Both the position numbers and the translations under genes were made by a program. From the NCBI GenBank assembly GCA_039803205.1, contig JBDRYB010000004.1, positions 74,371 to 138,370 of the forward strand: a stretch of DNA of 64,000 nt, read 5' to 3'. The notes below the pieces were generated by a model, which worked only from the letters and a program-made list of their open reading frames with translations, was not told the origin of the DNA and made no database searches. The stretch is from a candidate division WOR-3 bacterium. Its GTDB lineage: Bacteria > Hydrothermota > Hydrothermia > JBDRYB01. Positions 3,038-36,346 of the stretch are shown piece by piece; the first letter of the stretch is position 1, and each line of letters starts with the position of its first letter.

Positions 3038-4242
3038 CTGTCCACCTCCCCGAGGACCACATCAAGGGTCCCTATTAGCGTTATCACATCAGCAATAAGC
3101 CCCCCAACAGCCATCTTCTCAAGGGTTTGTAGGTTTATGAAAGTTGATGCCCTTATGTGCATTCTGTAAGGCCTCTGAGACCCATCTGATACGATATAGA
3201 ACCCTAGCTCGCCCTTTGGCGCTTCTATTGAGACATACACCTCTCCCTCCGGGACCGAAAACCCCTCTGAGACTATCTTGAAGTGGTGGATGAGGTTCTC
3301 TATGGAGTCGTAGACCCTATCCTTCGGGGGCGGAATAACCTTTGCCTCGTCCGCGATAACAGGCCCCTTTGGCAGTTGGGCCAAACATTGCTCGGCCATC
3401 TTGGCCGATTCCTCCATTTCCTCCATGCGGACTAAATACCGGGCATAGCTATCCCCTTCGGTATAAACAGGAACCCGGAAATTCAGCCTGTCGTAAACCA
3501 GATACGGCTCATCCCTGCGCATGTCGTGGTCAAGCCCAGAACCCCTTGCGACCGGGCCGGTTGCTGAGAGAGCCAGAACATCATCCCTCGTTAGGATGCC
3601 AACCCCTTGGGTCCTCTTCTTCCAAATGATGTTGTCCGTGAGCATGGTGTGCAGCTCTTGGAGGGCCTTTGTCCGGAAGTTAGCGAGGAAATCCGTGAGG
3701 CCCACGATGAACTCGTGGTTCAGGTCAGCCGCGACGCCGCCTATCCTCATGAAAGTGTTGTTCATGCGTTGGCCAGTGAGTATTTCAAGAAGATCGTATA
3801 TCTTCTCGCGCTCGCGGAAGGCATAGAACCAAGCAGTCCAGGCTCCTAGGTCCATGCCGTGTGAGGCATACCAGACGAGGTGGCTCTCTATCCTCGTTAG
3901 TTCTGCCAGAAGGGTTCGTATATATTTGGCCCTCTCGGGAACCTCAAGACCGAGGAGCTTCTCAACCGCCATCACATAAGCTAGGTTGTTGGTTAGCGGA
4001 GCGAGGTAGTCAAGGCGGTCCGTGTATGGGATTACCTGGTGATATGTCTTTTGTTCGGCTATCTTCTCGGTCCCCCTGTGGAGGTAGCCTGGGGTTATCC
4101 TGGCCTTCACGACGGTTTCGCCATCAAGCCAGAGCTTTATGCGCAGGACCCCGTGGGTTGCTGGGTGCTGGGGCCCCATGTTGAGCTCTATGACATCCGT
4201 TTCAACCCCAGCTGAATCCCTAAAAAGGATCTCTTTTTCCAT
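3034..4242 (-). CDS. nuoD: NADH-quinone oxidoreductase subunit D
   Basis: NMGPQHPATHGVLR, GYLHRGTEK, DRLDY, EAPKGELG, C-terminal GEVDR; no NiFe CxxC motifs. Confidence 0.96.
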   Translation of the reverse strand: MEKEILFRDSAGVETDVIELNMGPQHPATHGVLRIKLWLDGETVVKARITPGYLHRGTEKIAEQKTYHQVIPYTDRLDYLAPLTNNLAYVMAVEKLLGLEVPERAKYIRTLLAELTRIESHLVWYASHGMDLGAWTAWFYAFREREKIYDLLEILTGQRMNNTFMRIGGVAADLNHEFIVGLTDFLANFRTKALQELHTMLTDNIIWKKRTQGVGILTRDDVLALSATGPVARGSGLDHDMRRDEPYLVYDRLNFRVPVYTEGDSYARYLVRMEEMEESAKMAEQCLAQLPKGPVIADEAKVIPPPKDRVYDSIENLIHHFKIVSEGFSVPEGEVYVSIEAPKGELGFYIVSDGSQRPYRMHIRASTFINLQTLEKMAVGGLIADVITLIGTLDVVLGEVDR

Positions 4243-32466: not shown

Positions 32467-33735
32467 TTAGAACTTTCCCTCCGTGAGCATCTTGAGGAAA
32501 TCAGCGTTTGTCTTTGTTAGCCTCATCTTTTCCTGAAGGTACTCCATCGCGTCCGAGGGCTCGAGGTCCGATATGACCTTGCGCATGAGCCAAACCTTCT
32601 GAAGGGTGTCGGCTGGGAGGAGCAGTTCCTCTCGCCTCGTGTAGGATTTTATGAGGTCAATGGCGGGATATATCCGCTTGTCAGCCATGTGCCTGTCAAG
32701 GTCCATCTCCATGTTTCCGGTCCCCTTGAATTCCTCAAATATGACATCGTCCATCCTACTGCCGGTCTCTATCAGAGCGGTCGCTATGATGGTCAATGAG
32801 CCGCCCGACTCTATGTTCCTGGCTGAACCGAAGAACTTTTTGGGCTTGACGAGGGCTGTGGCATCAAGGCCGCCGGAGAGGGTCCTTCCTGAGTGAGGCG
32901 CGACGGCATTGTGAGCCCTGGACATCCTGGTTATGGAGTCAAGGAGTATTGCTACATCCTTGCCCATCTCAACGAGGCGCTTTGCCCTCTCGAGGGTTAT
33001 GTCTGAGACATAGACATGGCGGTCTGGGGGCATGTCAAATGTTGAGGAGACTATCTCAGCATCAACCAAGCGCTCCATCTCCGTGACCTCCTCTGGCCTC
33101 TCGTCTATGAGTAGGATGATGAGGTGAACATCGGGATAATTTGCTCTTATGGACTGGGCTATCTTCTGGAGGAGGACGGTCTTGCCCGCTCTTGGCGGGG
33201 AAACTATCAAGCCTCTCTGGCCCTTGCCAATGGGGACAAAGAGGTCAAGTATCCTCATGGAGAGGTCAGTGTCCCCGGAATCCGGCCTCTCCAGGATCAT
33301 CCTTTCAGTGGGATAGTAAGGGACCAGCTTCTCAAACTCGGGCCTCTGGGTAGGAAATTCCTCCGGGGAGAAGCCGTGAACGCTCTCAAGCCTTATCAGG
33401 GAAGGGAATCGTTCCTTCTCCTTGGGTGGCCTCGCGTATCCCACTATATAGTCTCCGCGCCTCAGTCCCAGCCTCTTGATTATGTTGGGTGAGACATAGA
33501 CATCTGAGGGGCTCGGAGCATAACCGTGTTCCAAGAACCTTAGGAAGCCGTAGCCGTCCTTGTGTATATCAAGAACCCCCTCTTTGCGGAAGAGCCCTTC
33601 CCTCTCAGCGGTTTGGTTTGTTATGTGCTGTATGAGCTCGGCCTTCTTTAACGAGGAGTAATTGGGTATCCCAAGCTCCTTTGCTATCTCGTATAGCTCG
33701 GCGAGCTTCTTTGTCTTAAGCTCCTCTATGTTCAT
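32467..33735 (-). CDS. rho: Transcription termination factor Rho
   Basis: DGYGFLR, PIGKGQRGLIVSPPRAGKT, LIDERPEEVT, EEFKGTGNME. Confidence 0.98.
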   Translation of the reverse strand: MNIEELKTKKLAELYEIAKELGIPNYSSLKKAELIQHITNQTAEREGLFRKEGVLDIHKDGYGFLRFLEHGYAPSPSDVYVSPNIIKRLGLRRGDYIVGYARPPKEKERFPSLIRLESVHGFSPEEFPTQRPEFEKLVPYYPTERMILERPDSGDTDLSMRILDLFVPIGKGQRGLIVSPPRAGKTVLLQKIAQSIRANYPDVHLIILLIDERPEEVTEMERLVDAEIVSSTFDMPPDRHVYVSDITLERAKRLVEMGKDVAILLDSITRMSRAHNAVAPHSGRTLSGGLDATALVKPKKFFGSARNIESGGSLTIIATALIETGSRMDDVIFEEFKGTGNMEMDLDRHMADKRIYPAIDLIKSYTRREELLLPADTLQKVWLMRKVISDLEPSDAMEYLQEKMRLTKTNADFLKMLTEGKF

Positions 33736-33780: not shown

Positions 33781-34437
33781 TCATAGCATCCTCATCCCGT
33801 TTATCCATACCTGGAAGGAAGCCGAGAGCGCCCTCGCGGCCCTTTCGGCTATGTGTATCCTCGGCGTGAAGATCTCAAAGTATTCCATGACGGGGCTTAT
33901 CTCGGTATCTATCTCTATCCTGTAAGATATAACTCTAGCGGCAGGGTCCACTTCTATAGTGCTGTCAGTTGCCGCGAAATTGACCCTGTCGTGTATATCG
34001 TGTTCTATATCATACGCGACCACCCTCGATCTGTGGACATCAGCCTTATCGGCGAGGATGACGGCCGCTGTTATTGCTGTCACGGGTTCCCCGGTCTCCT
34101 CGTGGTGGTTGCCTATGGCAGTGGCAACATCAAGGGCGTCCTGGAACGGCATTCCCATCCCGGTGAGATAAGTCAAGGCGAGGATGGCCCCGGTCTGCTC
34201 GTGCTGGTTGCGGTTTACAGCTGAGCCGATATCGTGTAGGTATCCGGCTATCTCCGCGAGCCCAACATCCCTCTCAGGATACCCCAGATTCCTCATTATC
34301 TTGCCAGCATCCTCCGATACCTTTGACATGTGCCTTTCCCCGTGCTCCGTGTATCCCAGCTTGACAAGGGCCTCCTGTGCCCTTGATATGAGCATGGTTA
34401 TCCTATGGTCCCTTTTAAGGTCTTCTACGGTTATCAT
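33781..34437 (-). CDS. HD-domain phosphohydrolase
   Basis: YTEHGERH, GYLHDIG, GNHHE, ILADKADVHRSRV. Confidence 0.88.
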   Translation of the reverse strand: MITVEDLKRDHRITMLISRAQEALVKLGYTEHGERHMSKVSEDAGKIMRNLGYPERDVGLAEIAGYLHDIGSAVNRNQHEQTGAILALTYLTGMGMPFQDALDVATAIGNHHEETGEPVTAITAAVILADKADVHRSRVVAYDIEHDIHDRVNFAATDSTIEVDPAARVISYRIEIDTEISPVMEYFEIFTPRIHIAERAARALSASFQVWINGMRML

Positions 34438-34452
34438 AAATAAGACTAGAAC

Positions 34453-35169
34453 CTATAGGGCAAAAAGCCCCTCTTCCTCTACAACGGTTCCCACAACCAC
34501 ATAGTCTGCCCCTGCCCCGAACGCGGCCTCAGCGGCCTCCTTTGTCCTTATGCCACCGCCAACCAGGAGGGGAAGGGTCGTTTCGGCCCTCGCGGCTTTT
34601 ATCATCCCAGGCGGAACCGGCTTAGGCGCACCTGAGCCCGCCTCAAGATATATCGCCTTGAAACCCAGAAGACAAGCGGCCATGATGTGCGCAACGAGTA
34701 TATCAATCTTATCCCTCGGAATGGGCTTTGTGCCGGACATAAATTCTACAGCTGTCTGAGCCCCGGATTCAACCAGTATGTAAGCCGTGGTCACAACGGA
34801 TAACCCCATTCTCTTTATGTGCGGAGCGGCCCGGACATGCTCCCCTATGAGGAACTCGGGGTTCCTACCCGATATCAGAGACAGAAGAAGGATGCCGTCA
34901 GCCTCGGGCGAAAGCTGGGTTGAGTTGCCGGGGAAAATTATGACGGGTTTCGCGAAGTTTCGCTTGAGCTCCCTTACGAACCCTGAGAAATCCTCTGAGA
35001 GCATGAGGCTCGTGCCAGCCAAAACCGCCTTTACCCTCTCGTCAGGATTGATTCTCTCCGCAAGACGCGGTATGTCCTCCCTGGGAAGACGGTCAGGGTC
35101 TAGGAGCACGAAGAATCCCTTGTCCCTATCTTCCGAAAAGAGTCTCCTTAAGGTATCTGAAAAGGGCAT
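34453..35169 (-). CDS. Geranylgeranylglyceryl phosphate synthase (GGGPS/HepGPS family, group II-like)
   Basis: LLDPD, PVIIFPG, LSLISGRNPEFLIGEHV, TAYILVESG, IYLEAGSGA, LVGGGIR, GAD.VVVG. Confidence 0.92.
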   Translation of the reverse strand: MPFSDTLRRLFSEDRDKGFFVLLDPDRLPREDIPRLAERINPDERVKAVLAGTSLMLSEDFSGFVRELKRNFAKPVIIFPGNSTQLSPEADGILLLSLISGRNPEFLIGEHVRAAPHIKRMGLSVVTTAYILVESGAQTAVEFMSGTKPIPRDKIDILVAHIMAACLLGFKAIYLEAGSGAPKPVPPGMIKAARAETTLPLLVGGGIRTKEAAEAAFGAGADYVVVGTVVEEEGLFAL

Positions 35170-36346
35170 TTTTCCCTTTTTTTAGGGCAAAGGCCGCGAG
35201 CCCGGGCGCGCCTGAGAGTATCATGCGGCCGATATATATAGAATCAACGCTTTCAAGGCTCTTTTCGTGGAAAAGGGGCTTCAGCTGGCCGAATAGGTAA
35301 TCCAGATCCCGATCCGTGAAATCAAAATATGCCTCACGGAGGCTGTATGAGAGCTCGTAGGACTTCCTGTCAGCCTCAGACCAGTATCTCTTTGGATACT
35401 CTGCCAGGTTCTTTTCCGAGAGGTCATCCTCCAGGAGCGCCCTCGCGCCCACCTGGCCGGCTATCGTTCCAGAAAGGAGGGCGGGGCCTATTCCACCCCC
35501 GGTTATCGGGTCAGCGAGCCTCGCGGCATCGCCGACGACCATCACCCTATCTCCATAGGGCCTGAGCCTGTGGCCGCCGGTCGGAACAACGGCCAGGATC
35601 CGAGAGAGCCTCTTCCCACGAGGAAAATATCTGGCCAAGAAGGTCTCAAGATAAGGCAGGGGATCAACCCTGGCCCCTCTATCAGCAACACCGACCCCAG
35701 CGTTGGCGAGCCCGTCTCTTTTCGTGAAAAGCCAGGCATAGCCGTGAAGCCCTATATCAGAACCGGAGTATAGTCCGAGCCAATCCCCCGATATATCCCC
35801 ATCGGAAAGGAGAACCTGCGCGGTGTAATGGACATCCGCATGGGAAACATCAACGGCCAACCCGAGGGCCTTTCCCACGGCGGACGCCGGGCCATCAGCG
35901 CCAATCACGAGCCTCGCCCTGACCCGTTCATCCTTCCCCAAATGAACGAAGCTGAGCTCTATGTCATCCTTCGTTCTTCGGGCACCCGTGAACCTCGCTG
36001 ACACGAGAAACTCAGCGCCAGCAGAAGCGGCCCGGACGGCCAGGTCCCTATCAAATATCCTCCTTTCCAGGATGTAGCCGACATGGCCTACATGAACATG
36101 GAAATAATCCCCTCCGGGGGAATAGACCCTCACATTCCTAACATGATTGGATATCCACCGGGGTTCGGGCTTCCATCCCAGGGCACCGAACCAGAAATCC
36201 GTTATACCCTCCGCGCAAGCTATCTCTCCAGCTACCTGGCGTTGGCGTTCCAGGACAAGAACCCTGAAGCCGCTCCTGGCGAGCTCATATGCGGCGCATG
36301 AGCCGCTAGGCCCAGCACCAACAACCACAGCGTCGTAGCGCTCCAT
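35126..36346 (-). CDS. Geranylgeranyl reductase family flavoprotein (resembles archaeal DGGGPL reductase)
   Basis: YDAVVVGAGPSGS, CAEGI, LERRIFDRDLA, IGADG, GYAWLF.K...ANAGVG, VGDAARLADPITGGGI. Confidence 0.85.
   Translation of the reverse strand: MERYDAVVVGAGPSGSCAAYELARSGFRVLVLERQRQVAGEIACAEGITDFWFGALGWKPEPRWISNHVRNVRVYSPGGDYFHVHVGHVGYILERRIFDRDLAVRAASAGAEFLVSARFTGARRTKDDIELSFVHLGKDERVRARLVIGADGPASAVGKALGLAVDVSHADVHYTAQVLLSDGDISGDWLGLYSGSDIGLHGYAWLFTKRDGLANAGVGVADRGARVDPLPYLETFLARYFPRGKRLSRILAVVPTGGHRLRPYGDRVMVVGDAARLADPITGGGIGPALLSGTIAGQVGARALLEDDLSEKNLAEYPKRYWSEADRKSYELSYSLREAYFDFTDRDLDYLFGQLKPLFHEKSLESVDSIYIGRMILSGAPGLAAFALKKGKNALFRYLKETLFGR

Follow-up and report, generated by a model that had tools for sequence, protein, structure and literature searches.

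Does a bacterium of the candidate division WOR-3 make isoprenoid ether lipids of the archaeal type? The question is raised by a stretch of 64,000 nt from contig JBDRYB010000004.1 (positions 74,371 to 138,370), which we call the window. It contains a gene coding for a flavoprotein of the geranylgeranyl reductase (GGR) family, and this gene overlaps another one coding for a geranylgeranylglyceryl phosphate synthase (GGGPS). A previous, sequence-only reading of the window suggested that the organism might make saturated phytanyl-glycerol ethers, possibly as part of a mixed membrane. As a genomic inference this suggestion holds: Most of the genes missing from the window are found elsewhere in the genome, and the two genes co-occur and are linked in other WOR-3 genomes, from which we infer the lipid itself. 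The explanation that we favor, with a probability of about 0.55, is that the coupled pair makes and saturates isoprenoid glycerol ethers. It would do so within a route leading through glycerol-1-phosphate (G1P) dehydrogenase (G1PDH), GGGPS, DGGGPS and CdsA to archaeol-type phospholipids, which would be present beside bacterial lipids.

Overlapping genes for a reductase and a synthase

Both open reading frames (ORFs) are exactly as the sequence-only reading described them, and they share 44 nt (Table 1). The GGGPS gene starts with an ATG at 35169, and a purine-rich stretch, AAAGGGAAAA, is found just upstream of it. Its product aligns with the solved structure 4JEJ from residue 16 onwards, paired with residue 21 of the 4JEJ chain: The N-terminal length fits. 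Because of the purine-rich stretch and of this fit, the overlap is probably genuine and not the result of an over-extended ORF. Translation of the two genes is likely to be coupled through it.

The pair is part of a run of genes in the order ridA, dcd, recA, GGR, GGGPS, HD, rho, all of them in the minus strand and separated by -4 to 45 nt. This order and orientation, already described in the previous reading, are confirmed by the ORF list and by profile matches. GGR begins 8 nt after the end of recA, and the HD gene begins 15 nt after the end of GGGPS. The G+C content at 34-36 kb is 0.559, inside the range found along the window (0.509-0.562), so the composition gives no hint of a recent import.

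The product of the downstream gene is predicted to be a group II GGGPS, nearer to group II than to group I or PcrB enzymes, in agreement with the previous proposal. It scores above the cut-offs of the family model PF01884 (121.3 bits, cut-off 23.9) and of the equivalog models TIGR01769 (170.3, cut-off 161.55) and NF003198 (249.2, cut-off 247). The best matches among solved structures are the GGGPS chains 4JEJ (E 3.8e-54, 187 bits, nearly end to end) and 4MM1 (E 2.9e-43). Seven GGGPS chains in the PDB give 109-187 bits, against 32 bits for heptaprenylglyceryl phosphate synthase (PcrB). The A. fulgidus-type and Halobacteria-type GGGPS models give 40 and 30 bits. No other gene of the PcrB family is found in the genome. 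The best solved relative, 4JEJ, is a group II enzyme from Bacteroidetes, presumably from Flavobacterium johnsoniae, and reportedly comes from the work of Peterhoff et al. in 2014. The GGGPS of Bacteroidetes are described as producing C20 ethers whose function is still unknown (PMC7888582); the passages of PMC7888582 used here do not mention an operon coupling GGGPS with a reductase, an arrangement seen in WOR-3.

The upstream gene is the only true GGR gene in the genome. Its product scores 212.6 with TIGR02032 (cut-off 158.8) and 38.8 with PF22578, GGR_cat (cut-off 27). The best specific models are those of archaeal digeranylgeranylglycerophospholipid (DGGGPL) reductases, NF041160 (172, cut-off 780) and NF041080 (136, cut-off 580); NF041385 gives 67 (cut-off 700). 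MenJ, the mycobacterial menaquinone reductase, and ChlP/BchP belong to the same FAD-dependent GGR superfamily (TIGR02032), but their models score far lower: 68.9 bits for MenJ NF045655 (cut-off 700), 112 for BchP-ChlP (cut-off 343) and 57 for ChlP. A homologue with 81% identity is listed by NCBI under the name "candidate division WOR-3 bacterium".

The best solved relative is the DGGGPL reductase from Thermoplasma acidophilum, 3OZ2 (E 3.6e-46, residues 1-351). All the motifs named in the sequence-only reading (CAEG, YxWxF and GDAA...DPITGGGI) are present and can be aligned with this structure. C44 in CAEG aligns with the cysteine of "vrCgeg" in 3OZ2, so that both proteins share a C-(A/G)-E-G cysteine, and they also share the FAD Rossmann motif, GYxWxF.K and GDAARLxDPITGGGI (GDAARLADPITGGGI in the window). 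An alignment of 14 homologues shows no variation at C44, G202, Y203, W205, F207 and K209 or in the columns GDA/P280/G283/G285/I286. On the other hand, identity with 3OZ2 is about one third, the score is 172 against the Thermoplasmatales equivalog cut-off of 780, the 55 C-terminal residues of the GGR are unmatched, and the host is a bacterium. There is also a difference in the substrate motif YxWxFP(K), which reads GYAWLFTK in the window, with Thr for the Pro after WxF. The previous reading had rightly pointed to it as LHGYAWLFT instead of PxxYxWxFP.

The rest of the pathway and its distribution in WOR-3

The source genome amounts to 2.32 Mb, split over 50 contigs, with a completeness of 95.9%. 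Neither DGGGPS nor G1PDH is encoded in the window, as stated in the sequence-only reading: Genes for a DGGGPS-like enzyme and for a G1PDH sit elsewhere in the genome. A DGGGPS-like protein is encoded by one of five UbiA-family genes. Its three best NCBIfam models are all DGGGPS, with 169.8, 164.8 and 117 bits (cut-offs 296, 269 and 353), and its sole PDB match is the DGGGPS 6M31 (E 6e-29). The only CdsA gene of the genome is found directly downstream.

The G1PDH gene follows the FabH gene and overlaps its end. By its scores, its product is closer to G1PDH (EgsA/AraM) than to glycerol dehydrogenase: It reaches 225 bits with NF002022, against 72 with the glycerol dehydrogenase model. Its best PDB matches are the G1P dehydrogenases 4RGQ/4RFL (E 2e-44), and G1PDH chains in the PDB give 155 and 129 bits. 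A score of 128 bits is found with 3CE9, deposited as a glycerol dehydrogenase, while bona fide glycerol dehydrogenases give 54 bits or less. The stretches GD..SN, SGSEH and LHGEQ, which contain the metal-binding Asp, His and His, are aligned and conserved.

A bacterial fatty-acid gene is thus side by side with an archaeal backbone gene, an arrangement found only in the genus of the window. We considered DGGGPS-CdsA and FabH-G1PDH as possible conserved operons and rejected them, as each adjacency is found in 2 of 12 loci, all in this genus (one of the DGGGPS loci is truncated by the end of its contig).

The genome contains two trans-prenyl diphosphate synthases. One of them lies between farnesyl and geranylgeranyl diphosphate (GGPP) synthases: It scores 269 with FPPsyn (cut-off 275), and its top PDB matches mix both types. 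The other one looks more like a synthase of medium or long chains. Upstream of the first Asp-rich motif, one synthase has Phe at -5 and the other Gly/Thr. Genes for bacterial lipids are also present: PlsY (two copies), GpsA, FabH and two CDP-alcohol phosphatidyltransferases. No match to PF01864, the CarS family, is found in the genome at its 95.9% completeness. Therefore, the candidates named in the sequence-only reading were only partly found: a DGGGPS-like UbiA enzyme and G1PDH are there, while CarS and a clear GGPP synthase are not. There is also a quinone prenyltransferase of the MqnP/UbiA type, and outside the window the genome has only generic ferredoxin-like matches. With these genes, the genome carries the set described in FCB bacteria: GGGPS, a DGGGPS-type UbiA enzyme and GGR together with the bacterial glycerol-3-phosphate (G3P) and fatty-acid pathway, with no CarS.

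Table 1. Location of the features discussed in the text. Positions with no prefix refer to the window, those with a C prefix to other places in the genome, and L numbers to loci from reference genomes.
Feature	Position	Strand	Size	Basis or remark
GGR-family flavoprotein, archaeal DGGGPL-reductase-like	35126..36346	minus	406 aa	ORF + TIGR02032
Group II GGGPS	34453..35169	minus	238 aa	ORF + PF01884, TIGR01769, NF003198
Overlap of GGR 3' end and GGGPS 5' end	35126..35169	minus	44 nt	different frames
HD-domain protein	33781..34437	minus	218 aa	PF01966 only; not part of lipid module
rho	32467-33735	minus		pairs with HD gene
DGGGPS-like UbiA enzyme	C8:47545-48360		271 aa	
DGGGPS-like gene with CdsA	C8:46693-48360			
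G1PDH	C7:43742-44827			
FabH with G1PDH	C7:42867-44827			
B12-binding radical SAM protein	C4:45715-47220		501 aa	about 27 kb upstream of window start
Membrane protein with UbiA domain	C12:43698-46001		767 aa	
Poribacteria GGR genes with in-frame TGA	L114, L118, L125, L134, L148, L158: ~4121-4190 in each locus			

In the pathway that we favor, GGR and GGGPS would be translationally coupled and expressed from a run of housekeeping genes. GGGPS would join a prenyl diphosphate, probably C20 GGPP, to G1P supplied by the G1PDH of the genome itself; the families of these enzymes are clear, and the substrates, the chain length and the stereochemistry of the product are predictions. A second chain would then be added by the DGGGPS-like enzyme, which is a UbiA protein with this predicted activity. 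The single CdsA would activate the diether with CTP, standing in for CarS, and the two CDP-alcohol phosphatidyltransferases would provide the head groups; the published promiscuity of E. coli enzymes suggests both steps. Finally, GGR, whose motifs are conserved, would hydrogenate the double bonds of the chains by means of FAD and Cys44, with NAD(P)H or some ferredoxin encoded elsewhere as the electron donor. Since the genome also has GpsA, PlsY and FabH, the membrane of the cell would be a mixed one, in which isoprenoid ethers of G1P, perhaps as bulk lipids, are found beside G3P lipids with fatty acids.

In order to follow these genes in the phylum, we used 151 WOR-3 genomes, sampled evenly. 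The thresholds were our choice (the family cut-off for GGGPS, E<=1e-40 for GGR, E<=1e-30 for G1PDH and E<=1e-25 for the DGGGPS-like protein), and the true numbers may be higher than our counts: In one genome, for instance, the gene adjoining GGGPS is a GGR-family member which is more distant (E 1.2e-22). At least 99 genomes contain GGGPS. The other three genes are found almost always together with it: GGR in 56 genomes (55 of them with GGGPS), G1PDH in 59 (55 with GGGPS) and the DGGGPS-like gene in 60 (56 with GGGPS). All four are found together in 24/151 genomes, and none of them in 44/151.

Linkage of GGR and GGGPS is conserved: They are adjacent, within 500 nt, in 27 of the 55 genomes which have both. 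Among GGR loci in the class to which the window belongs, GGGPS is immediately downstream in 17/20, and the three loci with no adjacent GGGPS are all from one family. The longest-ORF models of the two genes overlap or abut in 23/23 WOR-3 loci holding both, with start codons taken from longest-ORF calls.

The HD gene follows GGGPS in 16 of the 17 class loci, and the remaining locus ends at a contig edge. We considered the HD protein as a possible lipid phosphatase or other part of the lipid module and rejected it, since the gene occurs irrespective of GGGPS and stays beside rho. It is found in 77/151 genomes, including families with no GGGPS (f3 5/5, f10 3/3, f15 15/15), and it is absent from GGGPS-rich ones (f18 0/14, f21 0/20). 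HD and rho are adjacent in five genomes which have neither GGR nor GGGPS at that place, and in two further genomes HD is found beside a divergent GGGPS with no GGR. PDB and Atlas searches with the HD protein give only generic HD-domain matches. A link of this gene to the lipid genes is therefore not supported. The HD-rho pair is in itself conserved across the class, regardless of lipid genes.

Two other proteins encoded outside the window deserve mention. A B12-binding radical SAM protein matches weakly HpnJ (217 bits) and a "lipid biosynthesis B12-binding/radical SAM" model (91 bits), and it is the nearest to such models of the radical-SAM ORFs scanned. To judge from these matches, it may act on lipids. 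Only 10 of the 18 radical-SAM ORFs, the longer ones, were compared with NCBIfam: None of these ten matches a model named for the synthesis of tetraethers or of membrane-spanning lipids, which is no test of absence. The second protein has a multi-pass membrane region at the N-terminus, a UbiA domain at about residues 300-520 and a C-terminus which, by eye, resembles TPR repeats. No named family is close to it.

Related genes outside WOR-3

A profile search of reference genomes gave 80 GGR loci, 48 archaeal and 32 bacterial. These nearest homologues are euryarchaeal genes of the lipid-reductase type and bacterial genes of the FCB type, and neither MenJ nor ChlP/BchP is found among them. GGGPS adjoins GGR in 8/32 of the bacterial loci, against 0/48 of the archaeal ones. 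Five of these eight loci are from Ca. Poribacteria and have a DGGGPS-like match upstream of GGR, within about 1 kb in four of them and at about 3.5 kb in L118. A co-directional cluster of DGGGPS-like, ferredoxin, GGR and GGGPS genes is found in Poribacteria (L114, L134, L148, L158 and, with the larger distance, L118) and in unclassified bacteria (L093 and L116). As a cluster for archaeal-type lipids, it is more complete than the one in the window.

Poribacteria present another peculiarity. All six GGR genes that we have retrieved from them have an in-frame TGA at the column of the catalytic cysteine ("PVR*AEGI"), and their frame is open apart from it. About 14 nt downstream of the TGA there is a hairpin, with its pairing kept by compensatory changes at three pairs, and SelB is above the cut-off in 3/3 Poribacteria chromosomes searched. 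These features suggest that the Poribacteria GGR is probably a selenocysteine-containing lipid reductase. A full-text literature search for selenocysteine combined with geranylgeranyl reductase gave three papers, and neither term is found in their titles or abstracts.

The trees of GGR place the window among WOR-3 sequences. With FastTree and 117 rows it falls in a clade of 30 rows with support 100, made up of 29 WOR-3 rows and one record identical to a WOR-3 genome. In a quick IQ-TREE search with 60 rows, which we selected from the 117 so that every clade was represented, the WOR-3 clade of 14 rows also has support 100. In this tree, a branch with SH-aLRT 100 separates WOR-3, Edwardsbacteria, Zixibacteria and Ignavibacteria from 22 archaeal and 15 other bacterial rows. 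Both trees are unrooted and have no MenJ or ChlP/BchP outgroups. As they stand, they argue for a long residence of the gene in bacteria and against a recent archaeal import. One row, L091, comes from a 1.26-kb contig of a Spirochaetia metagenome-assembled genome (MAG), and its GGR is nested within Methanothrix; it is probably a mis-binned archaeal fragment.

An ORF with a ferredoxin motif (55-130 codons, one or two CxxCxxCxxxC) is a common neighbor of GGR: It is found just upstream in 67/80 loci outside WOR-3. In WOR-3, such a motif is found upstream of GGR in 1/37 loci, as a 21-codon ORF that we take as due to chance. Methanosarcinales homologues, with 35-38% identity, are among the nearest matches outside WOR-3. 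The GGR in WOR-3 shares its subfamily with the Methanosarcina-type GGR, which reportedly has a cognate ferredoxin as its partner (Isobe et al., 2014). The surroundings of the Methanosarcina-type gene are the reverse: It is preceded by a small ORF for a 2x[4Fe-4S] ferredoxin, and GGGPS is never adjacent.

Similar genes have been described in other bacteria. According to Villanueva et al. 2020, Cloacimonetes contain GGGPS, DGGGPS and a euryarchaeal-like GGR, with close homologues in other FCB bacteria and related candidate phyla (PMC7852524). Therefore, the novelty of the trait in bacteria, GGR included, which the sequence-only reading implied, is not supported. The Cloacimonetes and FCB set resembles the one in WOR-3 in its group II GGGPS, its DGGGPS-type UbiA enzyme and its GGR related to euryarchaeal ones. 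It also has a full bacterial fatty-acid and G3P pathway and no CarS, with CdsA as the proposed replacement (PMC7852524). There are also differences. The operon partner of GGGPS in WOR-3 is GGR and not DGGGPS; GGGPS-DGGGPS co-localisation is described in the same paper as restricted to Cloacimonetes (PMC7852524). G1PDH is present in WOR-3, while egsA and araM are reported as missing in the four MAGs of that paper (PMC7852524). A ferredoxin gene is found beside GGR in 4/4 Cloacimonadota loci, and none adjoins the GGR of the window. Finally, WOR-3 is another phylum, and the window is contained in four DNA runs of a single study, all labelled as hot springs metagenome; no RNA runs containing it appear in the run listing for the stretch.

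WOR-3 was one of 52 phyla of bacteria in the survey by Coleman et al. 2019, which gives Firmicutes, Actinobacteria and Fibrobacteres as the only phyla with all three core genes in single genomes (PMC6431249). Our full-text literature search found no other paper treating WOR-3 lipids, with the proviso that the supplementary trees of PMC7852524 may include WOR-3 sequences. In summary, the WOR-3 set is distinguished by G1PDH, by a GGR-GGGPS operon with no ferredoxin and by a genus-specific Thr substitution. It is not a new kind of system: It is a fuller example of a published exception to the lipid divide.

Alternative explanations and meaning for WOR-3

Several observations weigh against a complete route to archaeol-type lipids. 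The full pathway is not constant across the phylum, since 44/99 of the GGGPS-bearing genomes have no close GGR and 43/99 have no DGGGPS-like match at our thresholds. In one large family, GGGPS is found in 20/20 genomes, GGR in 0, the DGGGPS-like gene in 1 and G1PDH in 4. Related genomes are not independent samples, so that counts of co-occurrence overstate the evidence. In the genome of the window, equivalog cut-offs are reached neither by GGR (172 against 780 at best) nor by the DGGGPS-like protein (169.8 against 296) or G1PDH (225 against the 413 of NF002022). No clear GGPP synthase was identified: The names of NCBIfam and PDB matches assign a chain length to neither prenyl synthase. The adjacencies of DGGGPS with CdsA and of FabH with G1PDH are limited to one genus. 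The replacement of Pro208 of YxWxFPK by Thr is found in 3/117 homologues, all from the same genus, and Pro is otherwise invariant. Finally, there is no ferredoxin gene beside the GGR of the window, where recA ends 8 nt upstream, in spite of its presence in most loci elsewhere.

The main rival explanation is a pathway which ends at a monoether. In this case, the product of GGGPS would be reduced by GGR and then modified by dephosphorylation or acylation, as happens with the product of PcrB in Bacillus, to give a minor lipid of the membrane or envelope, and the DGGGPS-like protein would have some other substrate. We consider such an ending rather doubtful. It agrees with the fact that only GGR and GGGPS are tightly linked, with the DGGGPS-like gene on another contig and next to CdsA in a single genus. 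The score of the DGGGPS-like protein, the GGGPS-bearing genomes in which this protein was not detected and the C20 ethers of Bacteroidetes, of unknown function, also fit. Nevertheless, nearly all DGGGPS-like genes in our sample are found in genomes with GGGPS, the sole PDB match of the protein is a true DGGGPS, and Poribacteria group it with GGR and GGGPS. In addition, the GGGPS and DGGGPS of Cloacimonetes yielded diethers in E. coli, in the form of archaeol-type phosphatidylglycerol (PMC7852524).

The GGR might also saturate some other polyprenyl compound, such as the side chain of menaquinone, GGPP or a polyprenol, with its place beside GGGPS as a case of inherited synteny. Archaeal enzymes of the GGR family are described as multi-purpose in PMC10821996, a quinone prenyltransferase is present in the genome, GGR reaches no equivalog cut-off, and GGR and GGGPS are on different contigs in one family (f2). 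Such a role is unlikely, given that all but one of the genomes with a close GGR have GGGPS (compared with 99/151 overall), that the two genes are often adjacent and overlapping, and that the lipid-reductase models, the T. acidophilum structure and the nearest homologues all favor a lipid reductase. The reduction of quinones in the manner of MenJ, a caveat in the sequence-only reading, is disfavored by the same model scores, although membership in a common superfamily stands. 

It is very improbable that these genes serve to salvage or break down archaeal lipids from the hot-spring community, with G1PDH feeding the freed G1P into glycolysis. A reverse, catabolic role has been raised as one possibility for bacteria with GGGPS and DGGGPS (Coleman et al. 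2019, PMC6431249), and G1PDH is in principle reversible. However, breakdown has no use for a chain reductase, and the genes are placed in a recA/rho housekeeping run instead of lying with genes for transport or catabolism. Moreover, a prenyl transfer in which diphosphate is lost is not readily reversible, which also counts against salvage. Gene decay is a less likely explanation.

The synthesis of saturated isoprenoid ethers by the coupled pair is thus the explanation that we prefer. A wider proposal can be put forward tentatively from the gene content: Thermophilic WOR-3 bacteria may have a natural membrane that is mixed and heterochiral, with sn-G1P archaeol-type phospholipids, fully saturated, next to G3P fatty-acid lipids. 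The archaeol-type lipids would be made by means of their own G1PDH, a GGGPS coupled to a ferredoxin-independent GGR, DGGGPS and a shared CdsA. To judge from the hot-spring setting, these ethers may be there for heat tolerance.

In the study of early cell evolution, the lipid divide between archaea and bacteria is a central problem. Cloacimonetes, the exception already published, have no known source of G1P and no operon link to a reductase. If the wider proposal is true, G1PDH would close the gap in stereochemistry left for Cloacimonetes, and the WOR-3 lineage would be the natural case in which to test how stable mixed membranes are. With a near-complete and coherent pathway in 24/151 genomes, a tight GGR-GGGPS operon and a hot-spring setting, WOR-3 is a good candidate for lipidomics or for heterologous reconstruction, which would show whether heterochiral membranes exist in nature.

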